64,000 bases of DNA from Chloroflexota bacterium (GTDB lineage: Bacteria; Chloroflexota; UBA11872), in the NCBI GenBank assembly GCA_965263175.1, contig OZ253587.1, positions 234,579 through 298,578 of the forward strand. Direction: 5' to 3'. The position numbers and the translations under genes are program-made. Positions within the stretch are counted from its first letter, which is position 1. The number at the start of each line of letters is the position of its first letter. The notes under the pieces are model-generated. The model was not told the origin of the DNA. It was given only the letters and a program-made list of their open reading frames with translations, and made no database searches. Shown one piece after another: positions 1 to 58,162 of this stretch.

Positions 1-28
1 TTGACACCGCTAAGCTAACTGCTATACT
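1..28 (+). promoter_or_regulatory. sigma70-type promoter of the transposase
   Basis: TTGACA-16 nt-TATACT with TG extended -10, overlapped by inverted repeat GCTAACTG...CAGTTAGC (14-43). Confidence 0.65.
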
Positions 29-47
29 TAGATATCAGTTAGCAGGG

Positions 48-962
48 GTGTTTCGAATGCGCCGCCTCTCCCGCGATGACCGCGCCCAGATTCTCGCCTT
101 GCAGGTTGAAGGCATGTCGATTCGGTCGATGAGCCGCATCACCAGCCGCTCCAAAGACACCGTGATGCGGCTGGTGGTTGAGGCCGGCGAGGCATGCGCC
201 GAAGCGCACGGGAACCTCGTACGCGACTTGCGCTGCGAACAGGTCCAGGTGGACGAGCTCTGGGCCTTCGTGGCGATGAAACAGCGGCGCGTGCCAGCCG
301 AGCGCAAAGACGAGTTCGGCATCGGCGACGTCTGGACCTTCACGAGCATCGATCCCGAAACCAAGTTGATACCGACGTGGCTGATTGGCCGACGTGACGC
401 GGCCAGTGCGCGCCGGTTCCTGATTGACCTTGGCCGCCGGATTCGCGGCCGGTTCCAACTCACGTCCGACGGCGCCAGCTTCTACCGTGAAGCGGCCGAA
501 GCCGCGTTCGGCGGCCAGATTGACTACGCGCAGCTGGTGAAGCTCTACAGCGCCCCTGACGGCCCTGAGCGCTTCTACAGCCCGCCCGTGTGTGTGGCCG
601 CGGTTCCGACGCGGATCATGGGCGACCCGGACGAATCCCACGTCAGCACGTCGCACGTGGAGCGACAGAATCTCACGATGCGAATGTCGATGCGCCGATT
701 CACGCGGTTGACCAACGCCTTCTCCAAGAAGGTCTACAACCTGAGTTGCTCGGTGGCGCTCTACGTCTTCCACTACAACTTCGTGCGCCCGCACACGACG
801 CTCACCAAGGCCGCGCACGGCAAGCCGACAACGCCCGCGATGGCCGCTGGCCTAGCCGACAAGCCGTGGACGATGGCCGATATCGTCAAGCTGATCGAAG
901 ACCGTGAAGAGACGGCCGAAGACGTGGCAAAGCGGCGCAAGGACCGGCGTGATCAACGGTAG
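48..962 (+). CDS. IS1-family DDE transposase
   Basis: N-terminal HTH ([10 protein letters not shown]), [41 protein letters not shown] and TPAMAAG motifs typical of ISMhu11-like IS1 transposases. Confidence 0.93.
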
Positions 963-1021
963 CTTGACTTGATAGGCTTGAATGTGATACTCACCCGCCT
1001 CGTCGCCAGGAAGGACCGCAT

Positions 1022-1297
1022 ATGGCCGAAGTGTTTGCTGTGATTCTCCCCGACAAGAACCCCAAGGTCGGGGAGGCATTGACGAGCGCATACACGGCTG
1101 AGGACGTTCACCAAGTTGCCGGCAACGTGTATTTCGTACAGACCAACGATGAAGCGGGCACCGTTGTAGAAAAGGCCGGGATCGGTCTGGGCCAAGCTGA
1201 CCCGCCGGTGCCTGGCGTAGTGTTTAGCCTCAACGGATCGTACTCGGGTCTCTATTACAACACGCTCTGGAAGTGGATGGGCGTGAAGGATGCATGA
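1022..1297 (+). CDS. small IS passenger protein, 91 aa (possible ferredoxin-like fold)
   Basis: RBS-like AGGAAGGA upstream; lies inside the IS and is conserved in the second copy. Confidence 0.7.
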   Translation: MAEVFAVILPDKNPKVGEALTSAYTAEDVHQVAGNVYFVQTNDEAGTVVEKAGIGLGQADPPVPGVVFSLNGSYSGLYYNTLWKWMGVKDA

Positions 1298-1565
1298 CCC
1301 CCTCGGGGATCTGGGTTCGCATCAGGGGCAAGTTCGAGAACTGCAACGCGTGGCCGACACGGCCGCCTCGAAAGACTCGCTCCATGCGGTCGCCCTCACG
1401 GTCAATGGCCTTGTCGAACGGATTTCTAGCCTGGAGCGCGAGGTCAAGCACCGCCCGACCAAGGCTCAGGTGGCCGTGGTTTGTGGTGGTGTCGCGCTGG
1501 CGCTGCTAACACCGGCGACCATTTTCGTCACGAATGTCATCACAGTGGTCAACAAGGGAACCTAG
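1290..1565 (+). CDS. small coiled-coil protein with C-terminal TM helix, IS passenger
   Basis: 8-nt overlap with the previous gene; LVERISSLEREV coil followed by hydrophobic VAVVCGGVALALLTPATIFV. Confidence 0.65.
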   Translation: MHDPLGDLGSHQGQVRELQRVADTAASKDSLHAVALTVNGLVERISSLEREVKHRPTKAQVAVVCGGVALALLTPATIFVTNVITVVNKGT

Positions 1566-1785
1566 GTTCAGAGCTAGCCACAAGGCCGGCCACTATGGCG
1601 ACGCGCACCAGCGCCATCCAAGCGTTAGCCACCAACTGCAGTTGACACACCGCTCCGCGCTGACGCCAGCGCCGCAATACCCGCGGCCAAGTCAAAGTAG
1701 GACACTACCAACATTCAAGCATGCATGTAGCTACATTGTTTCGAGAGACCAATACCAGGCTCAGTGAAGTTCCCGGCTGGCAGCC

Positions 1786-1812
1786 CTGGATTCCGGCTTT
1801 CGCTGGAATGAC
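1786..1812 (-). repeat. REP-like palindrome
   Basis: Minus strand reads GTCATTCCAGCGAAAGCCGGAATCCAG, a GTCATTCC-type REP hairpin. Confidence 0.6.
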
Positions 1813-55063: not shown

Positions 55064-55331
55064 CCTTCACGCCCATCCACTTCCAGAGCGTGTTGTAATA
55101 GAGACCCGAGTACGATCCGTTGAGGCTAAACACTACGCCAGGCACCGGCGGGTCAGCTTGGCCCAGACCGATCCCGGCCTTTTCTACAACGGTGCCCGCT
55201 TCATCGTTGGTCTGTACGAAATACACGTTGCCGGCAACTTGGTGAACGTCCTCAGCCGTGTATGCGCTCGTCAATGCCTCCCCGACCTTGGGGTTCTTGT
55301 CGGGGAGAATCACAGCAAACACTTCGGCCAT
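55056..55331 (-). CDS. small passenger protein, 91 aa
   Basis: Identical translation to 1022-1297. Confidence 0.7.
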   Translation of the reverse strand: MAEVFAVILPDKNPKVGEALTSAYTAEDVHQVAGNVYFVQTNDEAGTVVEKAGIGLGQADPPVPGVVFSLNGSYSGLYYNTLWKWMGVKDA

Positions 55332-55390
55332 ATGCGGTCCTTCCTGGCGACGAGGCGGGTGAGTATCACATTCAAGCCTATCAAGTCAAG

Positions 55391-56305
55391 CTACCGTTGA
55401 TCACGCCGGTCCTTGCGCCGCTTTGCCACGTCTTCGGCCGTCTCTTCACGGTCTTCGATCAGCTTGACGATATCGGCCATCGTCCACGGCTTGTCGGCTA
55501 GGCCAGCGGCCATCGCGGGCGTTGTCGGCTTGCCGTGCGCGGCCTTGGTGAGCGTCGTGTGCGGGCGCACGAAGTTGTAGTGGAAGACGTAGAGCGCCAC
55601 CGAGCAACTCAGGTTGTAGACCTTCTTGGAGAAGGCGTTGGTCAACCGCGTGAATCGGCGCATCGACATTCGCATCGTGAGATTCTGTCGCTCCACGTGC
55701 GACGTGCTGACGTGGGATTCGTCCGGGTCGCCCATGATCCGCGTCGGAACCGCGGCCACACACACGGGCGGGCTGTAGAAGCGCTCAGGGCCGTCAGGGG
55801 CGCTGTAGAGCTTCACCAGCTGCGCGTAGTCAATCTGGCCGCCGAACGCGGCTTCGGCCGCTTCACGGTAGAAGCTGGCGCCGTCGGACGTGAGTTGGAA
55901 CCGGCCGCGAATCCGGCGGCCAAGGTCAATCAGGAACCGGCGCGCACTGGCCGCGTCACGTCGGCCAATCAGCCACGTCGGTATCAACTTGGTTTCGGGA
56001 TCGATGCTCGTGAAGGTCCAGACGTCGCCGATGCCGAACTCGTCTTTGCGCTCGGCTGGCACGCGCCGCTGTTTCATCGCCACGAAGGCCCAGAGCTCGT
56101 CCACCTGGACCTGTTCGCAGCGCAAGTCGCGTACGAGGTTCCCGTGCGCTTCGGCGCATGCCTCGCCGGCCTCAACCACCAGCCGCATCACGGTGTCTTT
56201 GGAGCGGCTGGTGATGCGGCTCATCGACCGAATCGACATGCCTTCAACCTGCAAGGCGAGAATCTGGGCGCGGTCATCGCGGGAGAGGCGGCGCATTCGA
56301 AACAC
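55391..56305 (-). CDS. IS1-family DDE transposase
   Basis: Identical translation to 48-962. Confidence 0.93.
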
Positions 56306-56348
56306 CCCTGCTAACTGATATCTAAGTATAGCAGTTAGCTTAGCGGTG

Positions 56349-57845
56349 TCAAGCGGCAATGGGCAGTTTCGGCACCCGTCCCTCGAAGTAATCGTCCACG
56401 GTGTAAATCTGAACGCGGGGTACATCCATGAACCGGCCCGTGCTCGCTGCGGCATCCCGCATACGCGGCGTCACACGGTCCTCAAAGCACGTGAAGATGC
56501 CAAGGTCGGCGTCGGCTTGTTGCCGTGCCCCGTTGAACGCCTGCACGTCTCCCGGTCCAGTGCCGCCGCCCTTGACTTGTGAAACCAGGTCGATAAATCG
56601 GCCCTTGCGAATCGCGAGCCGCCCCCAGCCGTCAATCCCGCCGTCACCACGCTGCCGCTCGTTGTATCCGACGCCGCGAACCAGCGACGCGGCCCAACGC
56701 TCGAACCGGAACGCGTCCAGGTTGGCGAGCACGCGAGCATCGTCGCGCGTCTTGGGAATACCAATGAACTCAATCTCCGACCACAGACTGTCGAAGTGAC
56801 TGCGCAGCCGATCCTCGATCACGCGGCATGCCTCAACGCAGATATCGACGCCGATCCATGACCGGCCGAGATTCTGGGCGGCGTGAATCGTCGTGCCACA
56901 ACCACAGAACGGGTCGAGGACGACATCCCCAGGATTGCTGGACGCCCTGAGAATACGCTCAAGGAGCGCGACTGGCTTCTGGGTTGGATACCCCAGCCGC
57001 TCCCGCGCCTGCGGCGCCAGGGAGGAAATGTCAGTCACGACATCGACGGGGGGCAGCCCCTTCTGTTCATGCAAATAGCGCTTGAGTCTCGGCTTCCCAT
57101 TGCGGCTCCAGGCGATTCGATCGTCACGAGCCAGTGCCTCCAACTTCTCCCGCTTCACCCGCCATCCCCAAATCGGCGTGTACCCGTTGAATTCGTAGGC
57201 CAGGTTCGGGCGCGGCCCCATCGATTTGCTGCGCTCTAGAACGTCCGACATCCACTGCCCACGCGAATCGTGATGGCGGTAGAACTTGTCAATGTATTCC
57301 TGCGAGTACGCCATGCGCACGTCGTTCCAAGTGAATCGGTCACTCTTCGAGTAGAACAGGATTACGTCGTGAACAGCCCCCCAACGCTTCGCATCATTAC
57401 GGCTGGCCGTGCGCTTCCAGATGACTTCATTACGAATCCCTCCCCTCCGAAAGATTGCGTCGAGAACGAGCTTGAGCGAGTGGCTGAAGGTGGGGTCGCA
57501 GTGGAGATACAGCGATCCCGTCGGTTTCAGTGTCCGGCAGCACTCGCGCAGCCGGTTTGCCATGTATGACAGATAGGCGAGGTTCGGCCCCTCGCCGTGG
57601 ATCAGCCGCATGGCCTCCATCGTGTGCGCCAGCGGCCCCGGCGAACTGGCTACATCGTGGAAGTCGTCTACGGCCTCGTGCCATTGCCACGTGTCCCTGA
57701 ACGCGTCTTGCTGTGACCCGCCAATGAACATGTTGTAGATGCGCTTCGAGTTGAAAGGCGGATCGGCATACACCAGGTGAACGGATTCGTCAGCGAGTTC
57801 CTCGCGCATCACGTCAAGGCAGTCGCCGAAGTACAATCTCCGCAC
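56349..57845 (-). CDS. beta-class N6/N4 DNA methyltransferase fused to an Mrr-like endonuclease
   Basis: DPPF precedes YPTQKP and [10 protein letters not shown]-terminal FERWA...DGGIDG...QVKGG (D-QxK). Confidence 0.9.
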
Positions 57846-57852
57846 GGCGGGC

Positions 57853-58074
57853 CTAGCCTGTAGCGGCGTCCGCCCATCGCGCCTTGCCGCCCTTGGCAGC
57901 GATGGCGGCGCGTTCGGCGGCGTTCAGCGACTTGGCGCGGGCCTCGCCCCCCTGACGGCCAGCGACGGCCTGGGGGGATTCGTCGGGTTCCTCAATGGGA
58001 ACCGCACCACTCATGCGCTGGAACAGCCCGTGGGCCAGTTCGTTAAAGTCGGGCGGTCCTGGATGCTTCGTCAT
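57853..58074 (-). CDS. small basic protein (GGxARAxxL...KGGKARW motif)
   Basis: GAGGGAAGG RBS; first gene inside the TIR. Confidence 0.75.
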   Translation of the reverse strand: MTKHPGPPDFNELAHGLFQRMSGAVPIEEPDESPQAVAGRQGGEARAKSLNAAERAAIAAKGGKARWADAATG

Positions 58075-58162
58075 CGACCTTCCCTCATGCGCGAGTTGCC
58101 AAACTGTGGCCCGCGCCTTGCAAACCTGTCAAGTCAAAGTAGGACACTACCGACTAACGGAC

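Follow-up and report, generated by a model that had tools for sequence, protein, structure and literature searches.

Organization of the locus

The whole stretch of DNA analysed here, a window of 64,000 nucleotides from an uncultured Chloroflexota genome (G000), holds two copies of a T-type element with a transposase and passenger genes, an F-type element with cargo and a transposase remnant, a G-type MITE and a solitary arm of the same MITE type (Table 1). An IS5-type MITE at ~53153-53275 adjoins the solitary arm.

Table 1. Coordinates of the element family and its features in the window
Feature	Position	Strand	Details
Second T-type copy, right-hand 1,709 bp	1..1709	+	Inverted relative to 54644-58151; continues past the left window edge
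F-type cargo element lacking a transposase, 2,975 bp (MIC-like)	6463..9437	+	Terminal inverted repeats (TIRs) 18/18; core GCTTAG at both ends
Target-site duplication (TSD) AACTTGCG	6455-6462 and 9438-9445		Perfect
Passenger ORF, 374 aa	6732..7856	+	N-terminal hydrophobic segment; Pro/Thr-rich linkers
Two coupled passenger ORFs, 101 aa and 149 aa	8098..8849 (8098-8403, 8400-8849)	+
Decayed 3' remnant of family transposase gene	8979..9428	+	Stop codon TAA inside TIR core
G-type IS1-family MITE, 252 bp	33063..33314		~122-bp base plus nested IS5-type MITE, ~33129-33251
TSD CGGCTGCT	33055-33062 and 33315-33322		Perfect; cores GGTCAT and GGTCAC (5/6)
Solo G-type MITE arm	53276..53336	-	End GGCAGTGGGTCATTTTGA at 53319-53336; other arm missing
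T-type element, putative autonomous transporter IS, 3,508 bp	54644..58151	-	All five ORFs on the - strand; perfect TIRs of 18-22 bp
TSD GACTAACG	54636..54643 (left) and 58152-58159 (right)		Core TCCTAC at both ends
Two coupled 91-aa ORFs	54788..55331 (55056-55331, 54788-55063)	-	8-nt overlap; second cargo slot, from transposase stop to TIR
Transposase, 304 aa, single ORF	55391..56305	-	N-terminal HTH and DDE core
Candidate sigma-70-like promoter, TTGACA-16-TATACT with TG	56325..56352	-	Immediately 5' of transposase start
Passenger, 498 aa	56349..57845	-	Predicted beta-class N6/N4 DNA methyltransferase with C-terminal Mrr-type PD-(D/E)xK domain
orf73, conserved small gene	57853..58074	-	Transposase-distal end; homologues in 9 elements

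Ends and target duplications

The ends of this family are inverted repeats of 18-22 bp reading GGTAGTG-N6-TTTGA(CTTG). With up to two mismatches, the window contains 11 matches to GGTAGTG-N6-TTTGA against 1.81 expected, a number that none of 100 shuffles reached, and seven of the 11 are exact, namely 1692(-), 6463(+), 9420(-), 33063(+), 33297(-), 54644(+) and 58134(-). Of the others, those at 17226 and 20288 have two mismatches, and a one-mismatch match at 35552 was taken as chance since it lies inside a sulfatase gene. The original prediction gave the spacing as N5, which is wrong, as the N5 pattern has no match anywhere in the window. Its central observation stands: the elements at 54644-58151, 6463-9437 and 33063-33314 share these inverted-repeat ends and are each flanked by a perfect 8-bp TSD, and the cores are equal or nearly so within each element (6/6 positions in the first two, 5/6 in the third). 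Across the whole genome there are 79 exact ends and, with partners allowed up to 15 kb apart, 35 end pairs with an 8-bp TSD (28 perfect and 7 with one mismatch), among them the many further pairs of differing cargo that had been anticipated.

The T-type element and its copies

The 304-aa transposase can be placed, from its sequence, in the IS1 family. Its top NCBIfam match is the IS1 model NF033558 at 55.8 bits, under the cut-off of 100, while among the Pfam models HTH_38 falls slightly under its cut-off and DDE_Tnp_IS1 scores 21.7 against 24.1. In two sister copies the latter model exceeds that threshold, with 33.2 bits for T6 and 27.0 bits for S1, and homologues with 54-79% identity carry the source name 'IS1 family transposase'. 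The candidate promoter agrees with 11 of 12 consensus positions, a consensus match only, in a region that contains two promoter-like sites against 0.5 expected.

The 498-aa passenger matches Pfam N6_N4_Mtase (6.1e-47), Mrr_cat (2.7e-07) and NA-iREase1 (1.2e-05), and PADLOC MTase_II (1.4e-55). Among the matches listed, all 120 homologues of ~500 aa have the methylase family and most have one or both nuclease-like families in addition. The gene is intact in the copies at 54644-58151 and 1-1709 and is frameshifted in the other four of six by one additional base within a C6/C7 tract, which may reflect either decaying cargo or a sequencing error in homopolymer length. The pair of 91-aa ORFs has no family match in Pfam, NCBIfam, PADLOC or PHROG; this segment is missing from T6 and from L036, in both of which the transposase stop codon falls within the TIR.

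Six T-type copies are present in the genome, the five others being 99.94-100% identical to 54644-58151. The copy at the left edge, which spans genome positions 232780-236287 as a whole element, shows its transposase at 48-962(+), its 91-aa ORFs at 1022-1297 and 1290-1565, and a TIR at 1692-1709. Its flanking octamers, CGATATCG and AACATTCA, form no TSD, and its flanks lie 200-226 kb apart and inverted in two relatives (G013 and G004), so that this copy sits at a rearrangement breakpoint. A TSD is missing in three of the six copies. Genome positions 1-9191 are identical to 3766845-3776035, and the right flank of copy T8 equals that of T5 exactly until the contig ends; T8 may be an assembly artefact. 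Transposase matches number 13 in G000 against 0-4 per genome in 23 relatives, an excess that, together with the near identity of the T copies, points to recent activity.

A shared backbone with exchangeable cargo

At the transposase-distal end lies orf73, a backbone gene rather than cargo. Its homologues occur in nine elements of the transposase clades T, K and S, with no Q-type element among them, and their alignment has 13 invariant columns (G..GG.ARA, E, RW). It matches nothing in Pfam, NCBIfam, PADLOC or PHROG, and only 'hypothetical protein' clusters in the Atlas. At the opposite end, three core positions of the transposase-proximal repeat read TAG, TAA or TGA, and part of the core is thus the transposase stop codon, which falls within the TIR core in 10 of the 19 transposase ORFs examined. 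The family would be built on a chassis with orf73 at one end and the transposase at the other, the ancestral stop codon lying inside the N6 core, with passenger genes placed between the two and, in some lineages, also between the transposase and its repeat.

The cargo differs among close relatives. Where T carries one methylase, T4 has two and no transposase, L036 pairs an 80%-identical transposase with an unrelated 240-aa ORF, and Q1 (genome 2003346-2007628, outside the window) has adjacent matches to RmrT (3.3e-37) and RmrA (1.8e-107). The predicted defence-type cargo is borne out at the level of domain matches by the methylase with its Mrr-like domain in the window and by RmrT/RmrA on Q1. 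The claim of surface genes found no such support, its sole basis being the N-terminal hydrophobic segment of the 374-aa F-type protein, which has no family match in Pfam, NCBIfam, PADLOC or PHROG, no usable Atlas match, and only 20 detected homologues, none with a name.

The F-type element and the MITEs

The remaining F-type cargo, the 101-aa and 149-aa ORFs (the latter with hydrophobic segments), likewise has no significant match in Pfam, PADLOC or PHROG. The contents of the three elements had been called unrelated, which is correct only in part, as 6463-9437 retains a transposase remnant recognizable against the 304-aa T transposase (phmmer E = 7.9e-28) and 68% identical to that of T6 over 571 bp (blastn). 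Since the 5' part of the transposase and orf73 are missing, the F-type element would be a derivative resembling a mobile insertion cassette (MIC) that has lost orf73 and most of its transposase but kept intact ends and unrelated cargo.

The miniature form proved not to derive from the element with the 304-aa transposase; with its GGTCAT/GGTCAC core it falls in a sister lineage (G-type) whose sole copy in this genome is decayed. Fifteen G-type MITE copies have paired ends and a TSD, their arms being 90% identical at the median, and the interior repeat of 33063-33314 has many more matches, both in G000 and in the majority of the 23 genus genomes. The nested IS5-type MITE occupies the central hairpin, which in G-type MITEs is a landing pad not only for such MITEs but also for IS5, IS110 and IS481 elements. 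The MITE would represent a ~122-bp deletion derivative of the G-type lineage, its autonomous copy now dead here, into which the IS5-type MITE landed later.

Empty sites in relatives

Empty-site alleles, which had been proposed as a check, are present in relatives. The site of the 3.5-kb element is uninterrupted in G012, where a single octamer related to GACTAACG is found; its flanks lie 0-1,143 bp apart on a single contig in 14 of 30 relatives, none of which has the 3.5-kb insert there. The flanks of 6463-9437 abut with one TSD copy in 5 of 23 genus relatives, the Q1 site is empty in 11 of 23 (the sequence was checked in G004), and that of a sister MITE at genome position 3754399 in 2 of 23. 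None was found for 33063-33314 among the 23 genus genomes, nor for the T7 copy.

Interpretation and alternatives

These observations are best explained, with a probability of about 0.85, by a real and recently active IS1-type family in this Chloroflexota genome, of which the window holds four insertions from a single-ORF DDE clade. The prediction of one end family that comes as autonomous elements, as elements without a transposase and as miniatures is thereby supported, and the clade that contains the four insertions would be a radiating one. The T-type would be an autonomous transporter IS (tIS) carrying a methyltransferase with an Mrr-like domain and two small ORFs, with six assembled copies as the result of a recent amplification, and involved in at least one chromosomal rearrangement. 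By analogy with IS1, movement would proceed through cut-and-paste or replicative DDE chemistry, and we infer the assignment of transposases to the non-autonomous elements that they would mobilize. The F-type element, for one, probably moved in trans. It might instead have arrived as a full-length IS whose transposase gene was lost after insertion, so that it never moved as a non-autonomous cassette. Compatible with this are its single copy in this genome, the lack of any F-type (GCTTAG) transposase or other end in G000, and the heavy decay of the remnant (68% identical in nucleotides to the closest relative, 5' part missing). Such a history is somewhat unlikely, given that neither the 18-bp TIRs nor the two TSD copies contain a mismatch, which is ill-suited to long decay in place, and that the 374-aa protein recurs at 98% identity on another 6.5-kb contig. 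Moreover, contigs from three other studies carry the same remnant-bearing short form, matching only 6460-9437 at ~99% identity and ending within 3 bp of the element ends, and their 27-87 bp beyond those ends do not fit the window flanks at ≥90%, though these are too short to prove another locus.

The role of the variable core and of the methylase invites further readings. A strict code, in which each transposase reads only its own core, does not cross-mobilize others and requires the same core for pairing, would account for cores that match 6/6 within T, T4, T6, F1, K1, K2, S1, Q1 and L036, for their clade-specific distribution on the transposase tree (clade support is 100/100 for the three TCTCAG rows and 98/96 for GGCAAG/GTCAAG), and for a predicted HTH recognition helix that reads SKDTVMRL in three TCCTAC rows and SKGAVT(K/R)L or SKITVTRL in three GGTCAY rows. 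We consider it doubtful, since common descent alone predicts clade-specific cores and helix changes too, and since a stop codon takes up three positions of the core next to the transposase. G-type MITEs also differ between their own ends at one core position, and in L035, a 2,894-bp element from a different genome, ends with AGTCTT and GGTCAT are bounded by a perfect TSD. In four MITEs a GGCAAG end is paired with a GGTCAC end, a difference at three of six positions; as these MITEs are 96-100% identical to one another, with perfect TSDs in three, they moved recently with unlike cores. These near-identical chimeras argue against strict end pairing, and with L035 they contradict the earlier suggestion that the core sets it, whereas an influence on transposase specificity is possible from the clade-specific cores and differing helices, both confounded by common descent. 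More improbable still is that the methylase and small ORFs are working transposon parts, for instance by methylating the ends to time when the element transposes, or as an addiction module acting against its loss. The methylase-transposase pairing does recur (T and T6 share it at 83% nucleotide identity, T4 has its two methylases, and L050 sets a 33%-identical methylase beside a 41%-identical transposase), and all five ORFs of the 3.5-kb element run in one direction; yet in the close transposase relatives L036, L035 and L034 this slot is taken by very different genes, a frameshift interrupts the methylase of T6, T4 and four of the six T copies, and the transposase is preceded by a strong promoter-like site of its own.

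Comparison with known systems

Members of the IS1 family have GGnnnTG ends and 8-bp target duplications, and ISfinder lists in this family an ISMhu11-type subgroup that carries cargo; a literature search on 'ISMhu11' returned no paper. The present elements resemble the single-ORF branch of IS1 in their best curated transposase model, GGnnnTG ends and 8-bp TSDs, and, like the cargo subgroup, reach up to 4.3 kb because of their passenger genes. They depart from IS1 in lacking the insA/insB' pair and its frameshift, in having a one-ORF transposase that contains an HTH but lacks a zinc finger, and in a T-copy transposase that scores under curated cut-offs. New here is the conserved ~70-aa gene that nine elements carry at their transposase-distal end, with cargo between it and the transposase. 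To our knowledge no such accessory gene has been described, and a search of the literature on IS1-family passenger genes, not aimed at that gene, did not bring it to light. Stop codons inside terminal repeats are common among IS; also new are the placement of the transposase stop inside a variable repeat core and the specificity of cores for transposase clades.

All three forms are of already known kinds, namely tIS, MIC and MITE. Like other MITEs, the element at 33063-33314 is short, occurs in multiple copies, codes for no protein and has the family ends and a TSD, but its parent lineage is dead in this genome and its type of hairpin accepts other elements. MIC231 of IS231 was reportedly described by De Palmenaer and co-workers in 2004 as a mobile insertion cassette, and 6463-9437 is alike in its family ends, TSD, cargo and want of a working transposase, but still holds a transposase remnant. 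In a tIS, a single pair of ends encloses the IS together with passenger genes (Siguier, Gagnevin and Chandler 2009, via PMC3129680; PMC7986276; PMC9330008). As far as these accounts describe it, the T-type conforms, since its cargo lies inside the TIRs and moves with the element; the six copies are identical throughout the cargo, and there is a TSD as well as an empty site. It would differ from that description in the several sister lineages within one genome, each with other cargo, in its two cargo slots, and in the defence-type nature of that cargo (the methylase with its Mrr-like domain, and Rosmer). Finally, Q1 resembles the Rosmer model of PADLOC-DB in its adjacent putative RmrT and RmrA genes, and is distinguished by the enclosure of this pair within IS1-type ends with an 8-bp TSD, at a site that is empty in nearly half of the relatives.

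Paired ends and extent of the family

A single transposon family occurs in this genome at once as an autonomous carrier of cargo genes, as a cassette without a transposase and as MITEs, with insertions attested by empty sites. The ends of the family were originally predicted to read GGTAGTG-N5-TTTGA, a spacing that has 0 matches in the window; the true spacing is N6, with the six variable bases referred to here as the core. When up to two mismatches are allowed, the N6 pattern yields 11 matches in the window against 1.81 expected, a number reached by 0 of 100 shuffles. The exact ends (n = 7) delimit three whole elements and one that is cut by the window edge, and direct reading of the sequence upheld the target site duplications (TSDs) of the three whole elements together with the cores at both of their ends (Table). 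A further match at 35552, with one mismatch, sits within a sulfatase gene and was taken as chance.

The window corresponds to bases 234579-298578 of one 3.78-Mb contig of 65% G+C. Exact ends number 79 genome-wide, and a relaxed end pattern finds 188 matches, compared to about 24 per shuffled Mb, with family cores in 97 of the 188. Ends that lie no more than 15 kb apart and are bordered by an 8-bp TSD form 35 pairs, the duplication being perfect in 28 and bearing one mismatch in seven, and additional paired ends with differing cargo are indeed present, as had been anticipated. A 7.9-kb interval (genome 112810-120748) with a one-mismatch TSD encloses ordinary genes and was treated as two unrelated ends rather than one element. 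No tRNA or known RNA was found within the elements, the sole tRNA of the window being located at 14614-14689.

Table. Elements of the family in the window and elsewhere in the same genome
Feature	Coordinates	Core	TSD	Description
T3, 3.5-kb element of lineage T	window 54644-58151	TCCTAC at both ends	GACTAACG	
F1, cassette	window 6463-9437	GCTTAG at both ends	AACTTGCG	Only carrier of this core in the genome
MITE of lineage G	window 33063-33314	GGTCAT at one end, GGTCAC at the other	CGGCTGCT	
T2, end of second 3.5-kb copy	window 1692-1709			Inverted relative to 54644-58151; continues past the left edge of the window
Solo MITE arm	end at window 53319-53336			One mismatch to the N6 pattern
Lineage T		TCCTAC		Six copies of 3,508-3,509 bp
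T6		TCCTAC		2,620 bp; a transposase and a decayed methylase; 83% identical to T
T4 (L001)	genome 2522133-2525783	TCCTAC	One mismatch	3,651 bp; both ends of the methylase-side type; two methylase genes but none for a transposase
Lineage G		GGTCAT/GGTCAC		15 TSD-paired MITEs and solo ends
K1, K2		GGCAAG		K1 1,825 bp, with intact 298-aa transposase
Q1 (L012)		GGGGCA		4,283 bp
S1		TCTCAG		3,437 bp; IS5 nested inside
orf73 of T3	window 57853-58074			Gene of about 70 aa

Empty sites, genomic setting and rearrangements

Alleles lacking the insertions, which the original prediction expected in relatives, were found for T3, F1, Q1 and one sister MITE. The genus relative G012 has an uninterrupted T3 site with one octamer, and in 14 of 30 relatives a single contig carries both T3 flanks at a distance of 0-1,143 bp, the 3.5-kb insert being found in none. 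In 5 of 23 genus relatives the F1 flanks abut with an overlap of 7-9 bp, equivalent to one TSD copy, and the F1 cargo is absent from all 23 searched. The Q1 site is empty in 11 of 23 relatives (the sequence of G004 was read directly), as is that of a MITE at genome position 3754399 in G013 and G004. The relatives showed no empty site for the window MITE, whose left flank consists of the 3' end, itself repeated, of genes of a cadherin-like family, and for T7 the right flank was not found among the 5 relatives searched.

T3 inserted between the 3' end of a small gene (54553-54643) and a gene of the DUF2283 family (58152-58360; given as 57995-58360 in the gene listing), and may thereby have split a two-gene pair; in G012 the two are contiguous. 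Elsewhere in the window, a low-GC3 cluster at 39108-41416, encoding a C5 cytosine methylase, a GIY-YIG protein and a Vsr mismatch endonuclease, is likely a restriction-modification module. The region 47084-53152 is also defence-like, comprising an AAA_15/AAA_21 ATPase with a 188-aa ORF (low GC3), a 968-aa Eco57I-like methylase/nuclease and a Phd-like/PIN toxin-antitoxin pair. Three large genes of eukaryote-like repeat proteins (fn3; PD40 and LRR; cadherin, Calx-beta and fn3) occupy 23686-33036, and the 3' end of the last (32463-33045) recurs elsewhere in the genome at 100% and 95% identity.

Three copies of lineage T (T1, T2 and T5) have no TSDs. In G013 and G004 the sequences bordering T2 are inverted and separated by 200-226 kb, and the copy at the left edge of the window thus marks a rearrangement. 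Directly outside its end is a very abundant short repeat (window 1710-2000), where contig depth is 1,725-5,647 in four runs, compared to tens elsewhere. At the termini of the contig, genome 1-9191 is 100% identical to 3766845-3776035 over 9.2 kb, and the last 7,041 bp (3776036-3783076), forming the right flank of T8, match the right flank of T5 (copy 3289405-3292913) without a difference as far as the contig runs. It is therefore possible that T8 is an assembly artefact, and the contig-end repeats look like the product of an untrimmed or mis-threaded circular assembly via the 3.5-kb repeat. The elements are of value for annotation in that they account for several rearrangement breakpoints and repeats of this assembly.

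Cargo genes

Lineage T has the features of a transporter IS, with six copies that are 99.94-100% identical over 3.5 kb including a methylase gene, a TSD and an empty site. Its cargo encodes a 498-aa fusion of an N6/N4 methyltransferase with an Mrr-type domain; the match of the methylase domain is strong (6.1e-47), and the C-terminal domain matches an "inactive REase" family (1.2e-05) as well as Mrr_cat (2.7e-07). A D...QxK-like motif is readable in the sequence. The 120 homologues listed at a length near 500 aa all carry the methylase family, and most add one or both of the nuclease-like families. A C6/C7 homopolymer at element base 2734 (within 56349-57845 in the window copy) varies among the 3.5-kb copies: four of the six bear C7, which splits the methylase into ORFs of 168 and 360 aa, and the two that keep 498 aa are both at the window. 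This may be a real on/off difference or a homopolymer sequencing error.

In Q1, PADLOC matches RmrT (3.3e-37; L012:3458-4222) and RmrA (1.8e-107; L012:2385-3674), and these matches overlap on the same strand, which is the gene adjacency expected of a Rosmer system. Kin of Q1 that are 75-84% identical, including the RmrA/RmrT region, occur at other loci in two genus genomes (G010:C65:326797-329600 and G001:C26:5435-7860); at the orthologous Q1 site the flanks abut in G001 and are 177 bp apart in G010, with no Q1-sized element there. Other passengers include a 33%-identical methylase alongside a 41%-identical transposase (L050) and, in L036, L035 and L034, close transposase relatives from other genomes, a 240-aa hypothetical protein, small hypothetical ORFs or a nested IS481.

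F1 has the features of a mobile insertion cassette, with terminal repeats matching at 18 of 18 positions, a perfect TSD and only a decayed 149-aa C-terminal remnant of a transposase; as noted above, its site is empty in 5 of the 23 genus relatives. Its cargo comprises a 374-aa protein, hydrophobic over a segment near the N-terminus, together with a coupled pair of ORFs (101 and 149 aa), none of which has a Pfam, NCBIfam, PADLOC or PHROGs match, the Atlas returning nothing or unnamed clusters; homologues of the 374-aa protein number only 20, all unnamed. The locus is identical in the likely source sample (contig covering 6331-10444). Three runs from three other studies contain contigs that cover only 6460-7873 and 7911-9437, about 99% identical with 37 bp missing, and their 27-87 extra letters past the F1 ends do not fit the window flanks. 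The already truncated cassette therefore exists in other populations, apparently in a different context, and these contigs favour, without proving, movement of F1 in trans.

It had been proposed that the family moves defence and surface genes. The defence half is supported by the domain matches of the T and Q1 cargo (methylase/Mrr-type and RmrT/RmrA); the surface half is a guess based on the hydrophobic segment of the F1 protein. Small, IS-level elements of this kind carry putative defence genes between strains of an uncultured Chloroflexota genus, a role not confined to large islands.

MITEs and the role of the core

The base form of the G-type MITE is 122 bp, with two arms flanking a GC-rich hairpin. 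In the window MITE and other copies of about 250 bp, the hairpin loop is occupied by a further MITE, of IS5 type and about 127 bp long. In all, 19 TSD-paired copies are shorter than 600 bp (15 G-type and 4 chimeric). Larger G-type elements of 1.4-2.7 kb were considered as autonomous IS and proved to be MITEs with nested IS5, IS481 or IS110. The arms of G-type copies have a median identity of 90%, indicating that these MITEs are older than the burst of T. The sole G-type transposase in the genome is a decayed fragment (3484494-3485268), 84% identical to the T protein and ending in a GGTCAC repeat. In other Chloroflexota genomes, G-type elements encode transposases 77-79% identical to that of T, intact in L034 and frameshifted in L035. 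The window MITE is accordingly assigned to a sister lineage and not to the element of the 304-aa transposase.

The original prediction held that the variable core may set transposase specificity or the pairing of ends. Some discrimination between cores is possible, given that the cores are identical at both ends in most elements and follow the transposase clades, and that the predicted recognition helix is unlike between the TCCTAC and GGTCAY groups. Strict pairing is contradicted by four MITEs that combine a GGCAAG end with a GGTCAC end, present as 123-bp and 250-bp forms with perfect TSDs in three of four, and with arms that are 96-100% identical to one another. These copies moved recently, and it was probably the intact K1 transposase that mobilised them. 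L035, with AGTCTT and GGTCAT ends and a perfect TSD, likewise argues against a strict rule, and the chimeric-ended MITEs bear on the stringency with which IS1-type transposases recognise their ends. T4 is a possible natural construct of two like ends, and could account for the spread of a new core to both ends of a lineage.

Of the 19 transposase ORFs examined, 10 terminate within the N6 core of the proximal repeat, the stop codon being TAG in T6 and L036, and TGA in the G-type, S-type, L037 and L050 genes; in the F1 remnant it reads TAA, as seen directly in the sequence. The "variable core" is thus partly coding sequence. In K1 and L042 the stop falls immediately before the repeat.

A possible common chassis

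Homologues of orf73 lie at the transposase-distal end of nine elements (T, T6, L036, L035, L034, L042, K1, K2 and S1) that span the T, K and S transposase clades, and their alignment has 13 invariant columns. F1 is without orf73. No family match was found for orf73 in Pfam, NCBIfam, PADLOC or PHROGs, and only unnamed clusters in the Atlas. Lineage T contains a second cargo slot, about 740 bp with two coupled 91-aa ORFs between the repeat and the transposase gene, which here has ceased to run into the repeat; the two ORFs have no match in the same four collections, and the Atlas gives unnamed clusters or nothing. The homology of T with T6 ends about 10 bp before the stop codon, just where the 22-bp repeat has its inner boundary.

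A speculative reading, to which we would give roughly one chance in five, is that the elements are dedicated gene-delivery chassis, in which orf73 and the transposase bracket an exchangeable slot that prefers defence genes. The core and recognition helix would serve as a loose lineage barcode that limits, without forbidding, cross-mobilisation of cassettes and MITEs, and orf73 would represent a novel accessory factor in the transposition of IS1-type elements. The most useful leads are orf73 with its conservation, the chimeric-ended MITEs, and the cargo slots that adjoin the 22-bp ends on their inner side.

Relation to known insertion sequences and cassettes

The best NCBIfam family for the T transposase is IS1 (NF033558; 55.8 bits, below the cut-off of 100), and its Pfam PF03400 score of 21.7 bits is below the cut-off of 24.1, which the sister copies T6 (33.2 bits) and S1 (27.0 bits) pass. 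Its homologues number in the thousands, those with names being IS1 family transposases, many from Chloroflexota MAGs, and those 54-79% identical are called IS1 family by NCBI and JGI. A locus search with this transposase found 6 related loci. Matches number 13 in this genome, compared to 0-4 in each of 23 genus relatives, only 8 of which have one at E 1e-30 or better. A strong sigma-70-like site was matched directly upstream of the transposase start.

In the IS1 family, terminal repeats begin with GGnnnTG and the target duplication is 8-9 bp, in accordance with the GGTAGTG ends and 8-bp duplications seen here in 35 pairs, 28 of them perfect. Classical IS1 of the E. coli type, however, joins insA and insB' through a programmed -1 frameshift and has a zinc finger in InsA, whereas the T transposase is a single 304-aa ORF with a helix-turn-helix at residues 5-43. 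Neither an insA-like gene upstream of it nor Cys pairs in its protein were found, which would place it in the single-ORF branch of IS1 rather than with the classical type.

The literature consulted (PMC3129680, PMC7986276, PMC9330008) supports transporter IS, mobile insertion cassettes, MITEs and solo ends as established categories, with citations of a 2009 paper on IS1595 and IS1 and of a paper on MIC231. The present family is genuine and clearly delimited, and offers a rather rich example of these known kinds.
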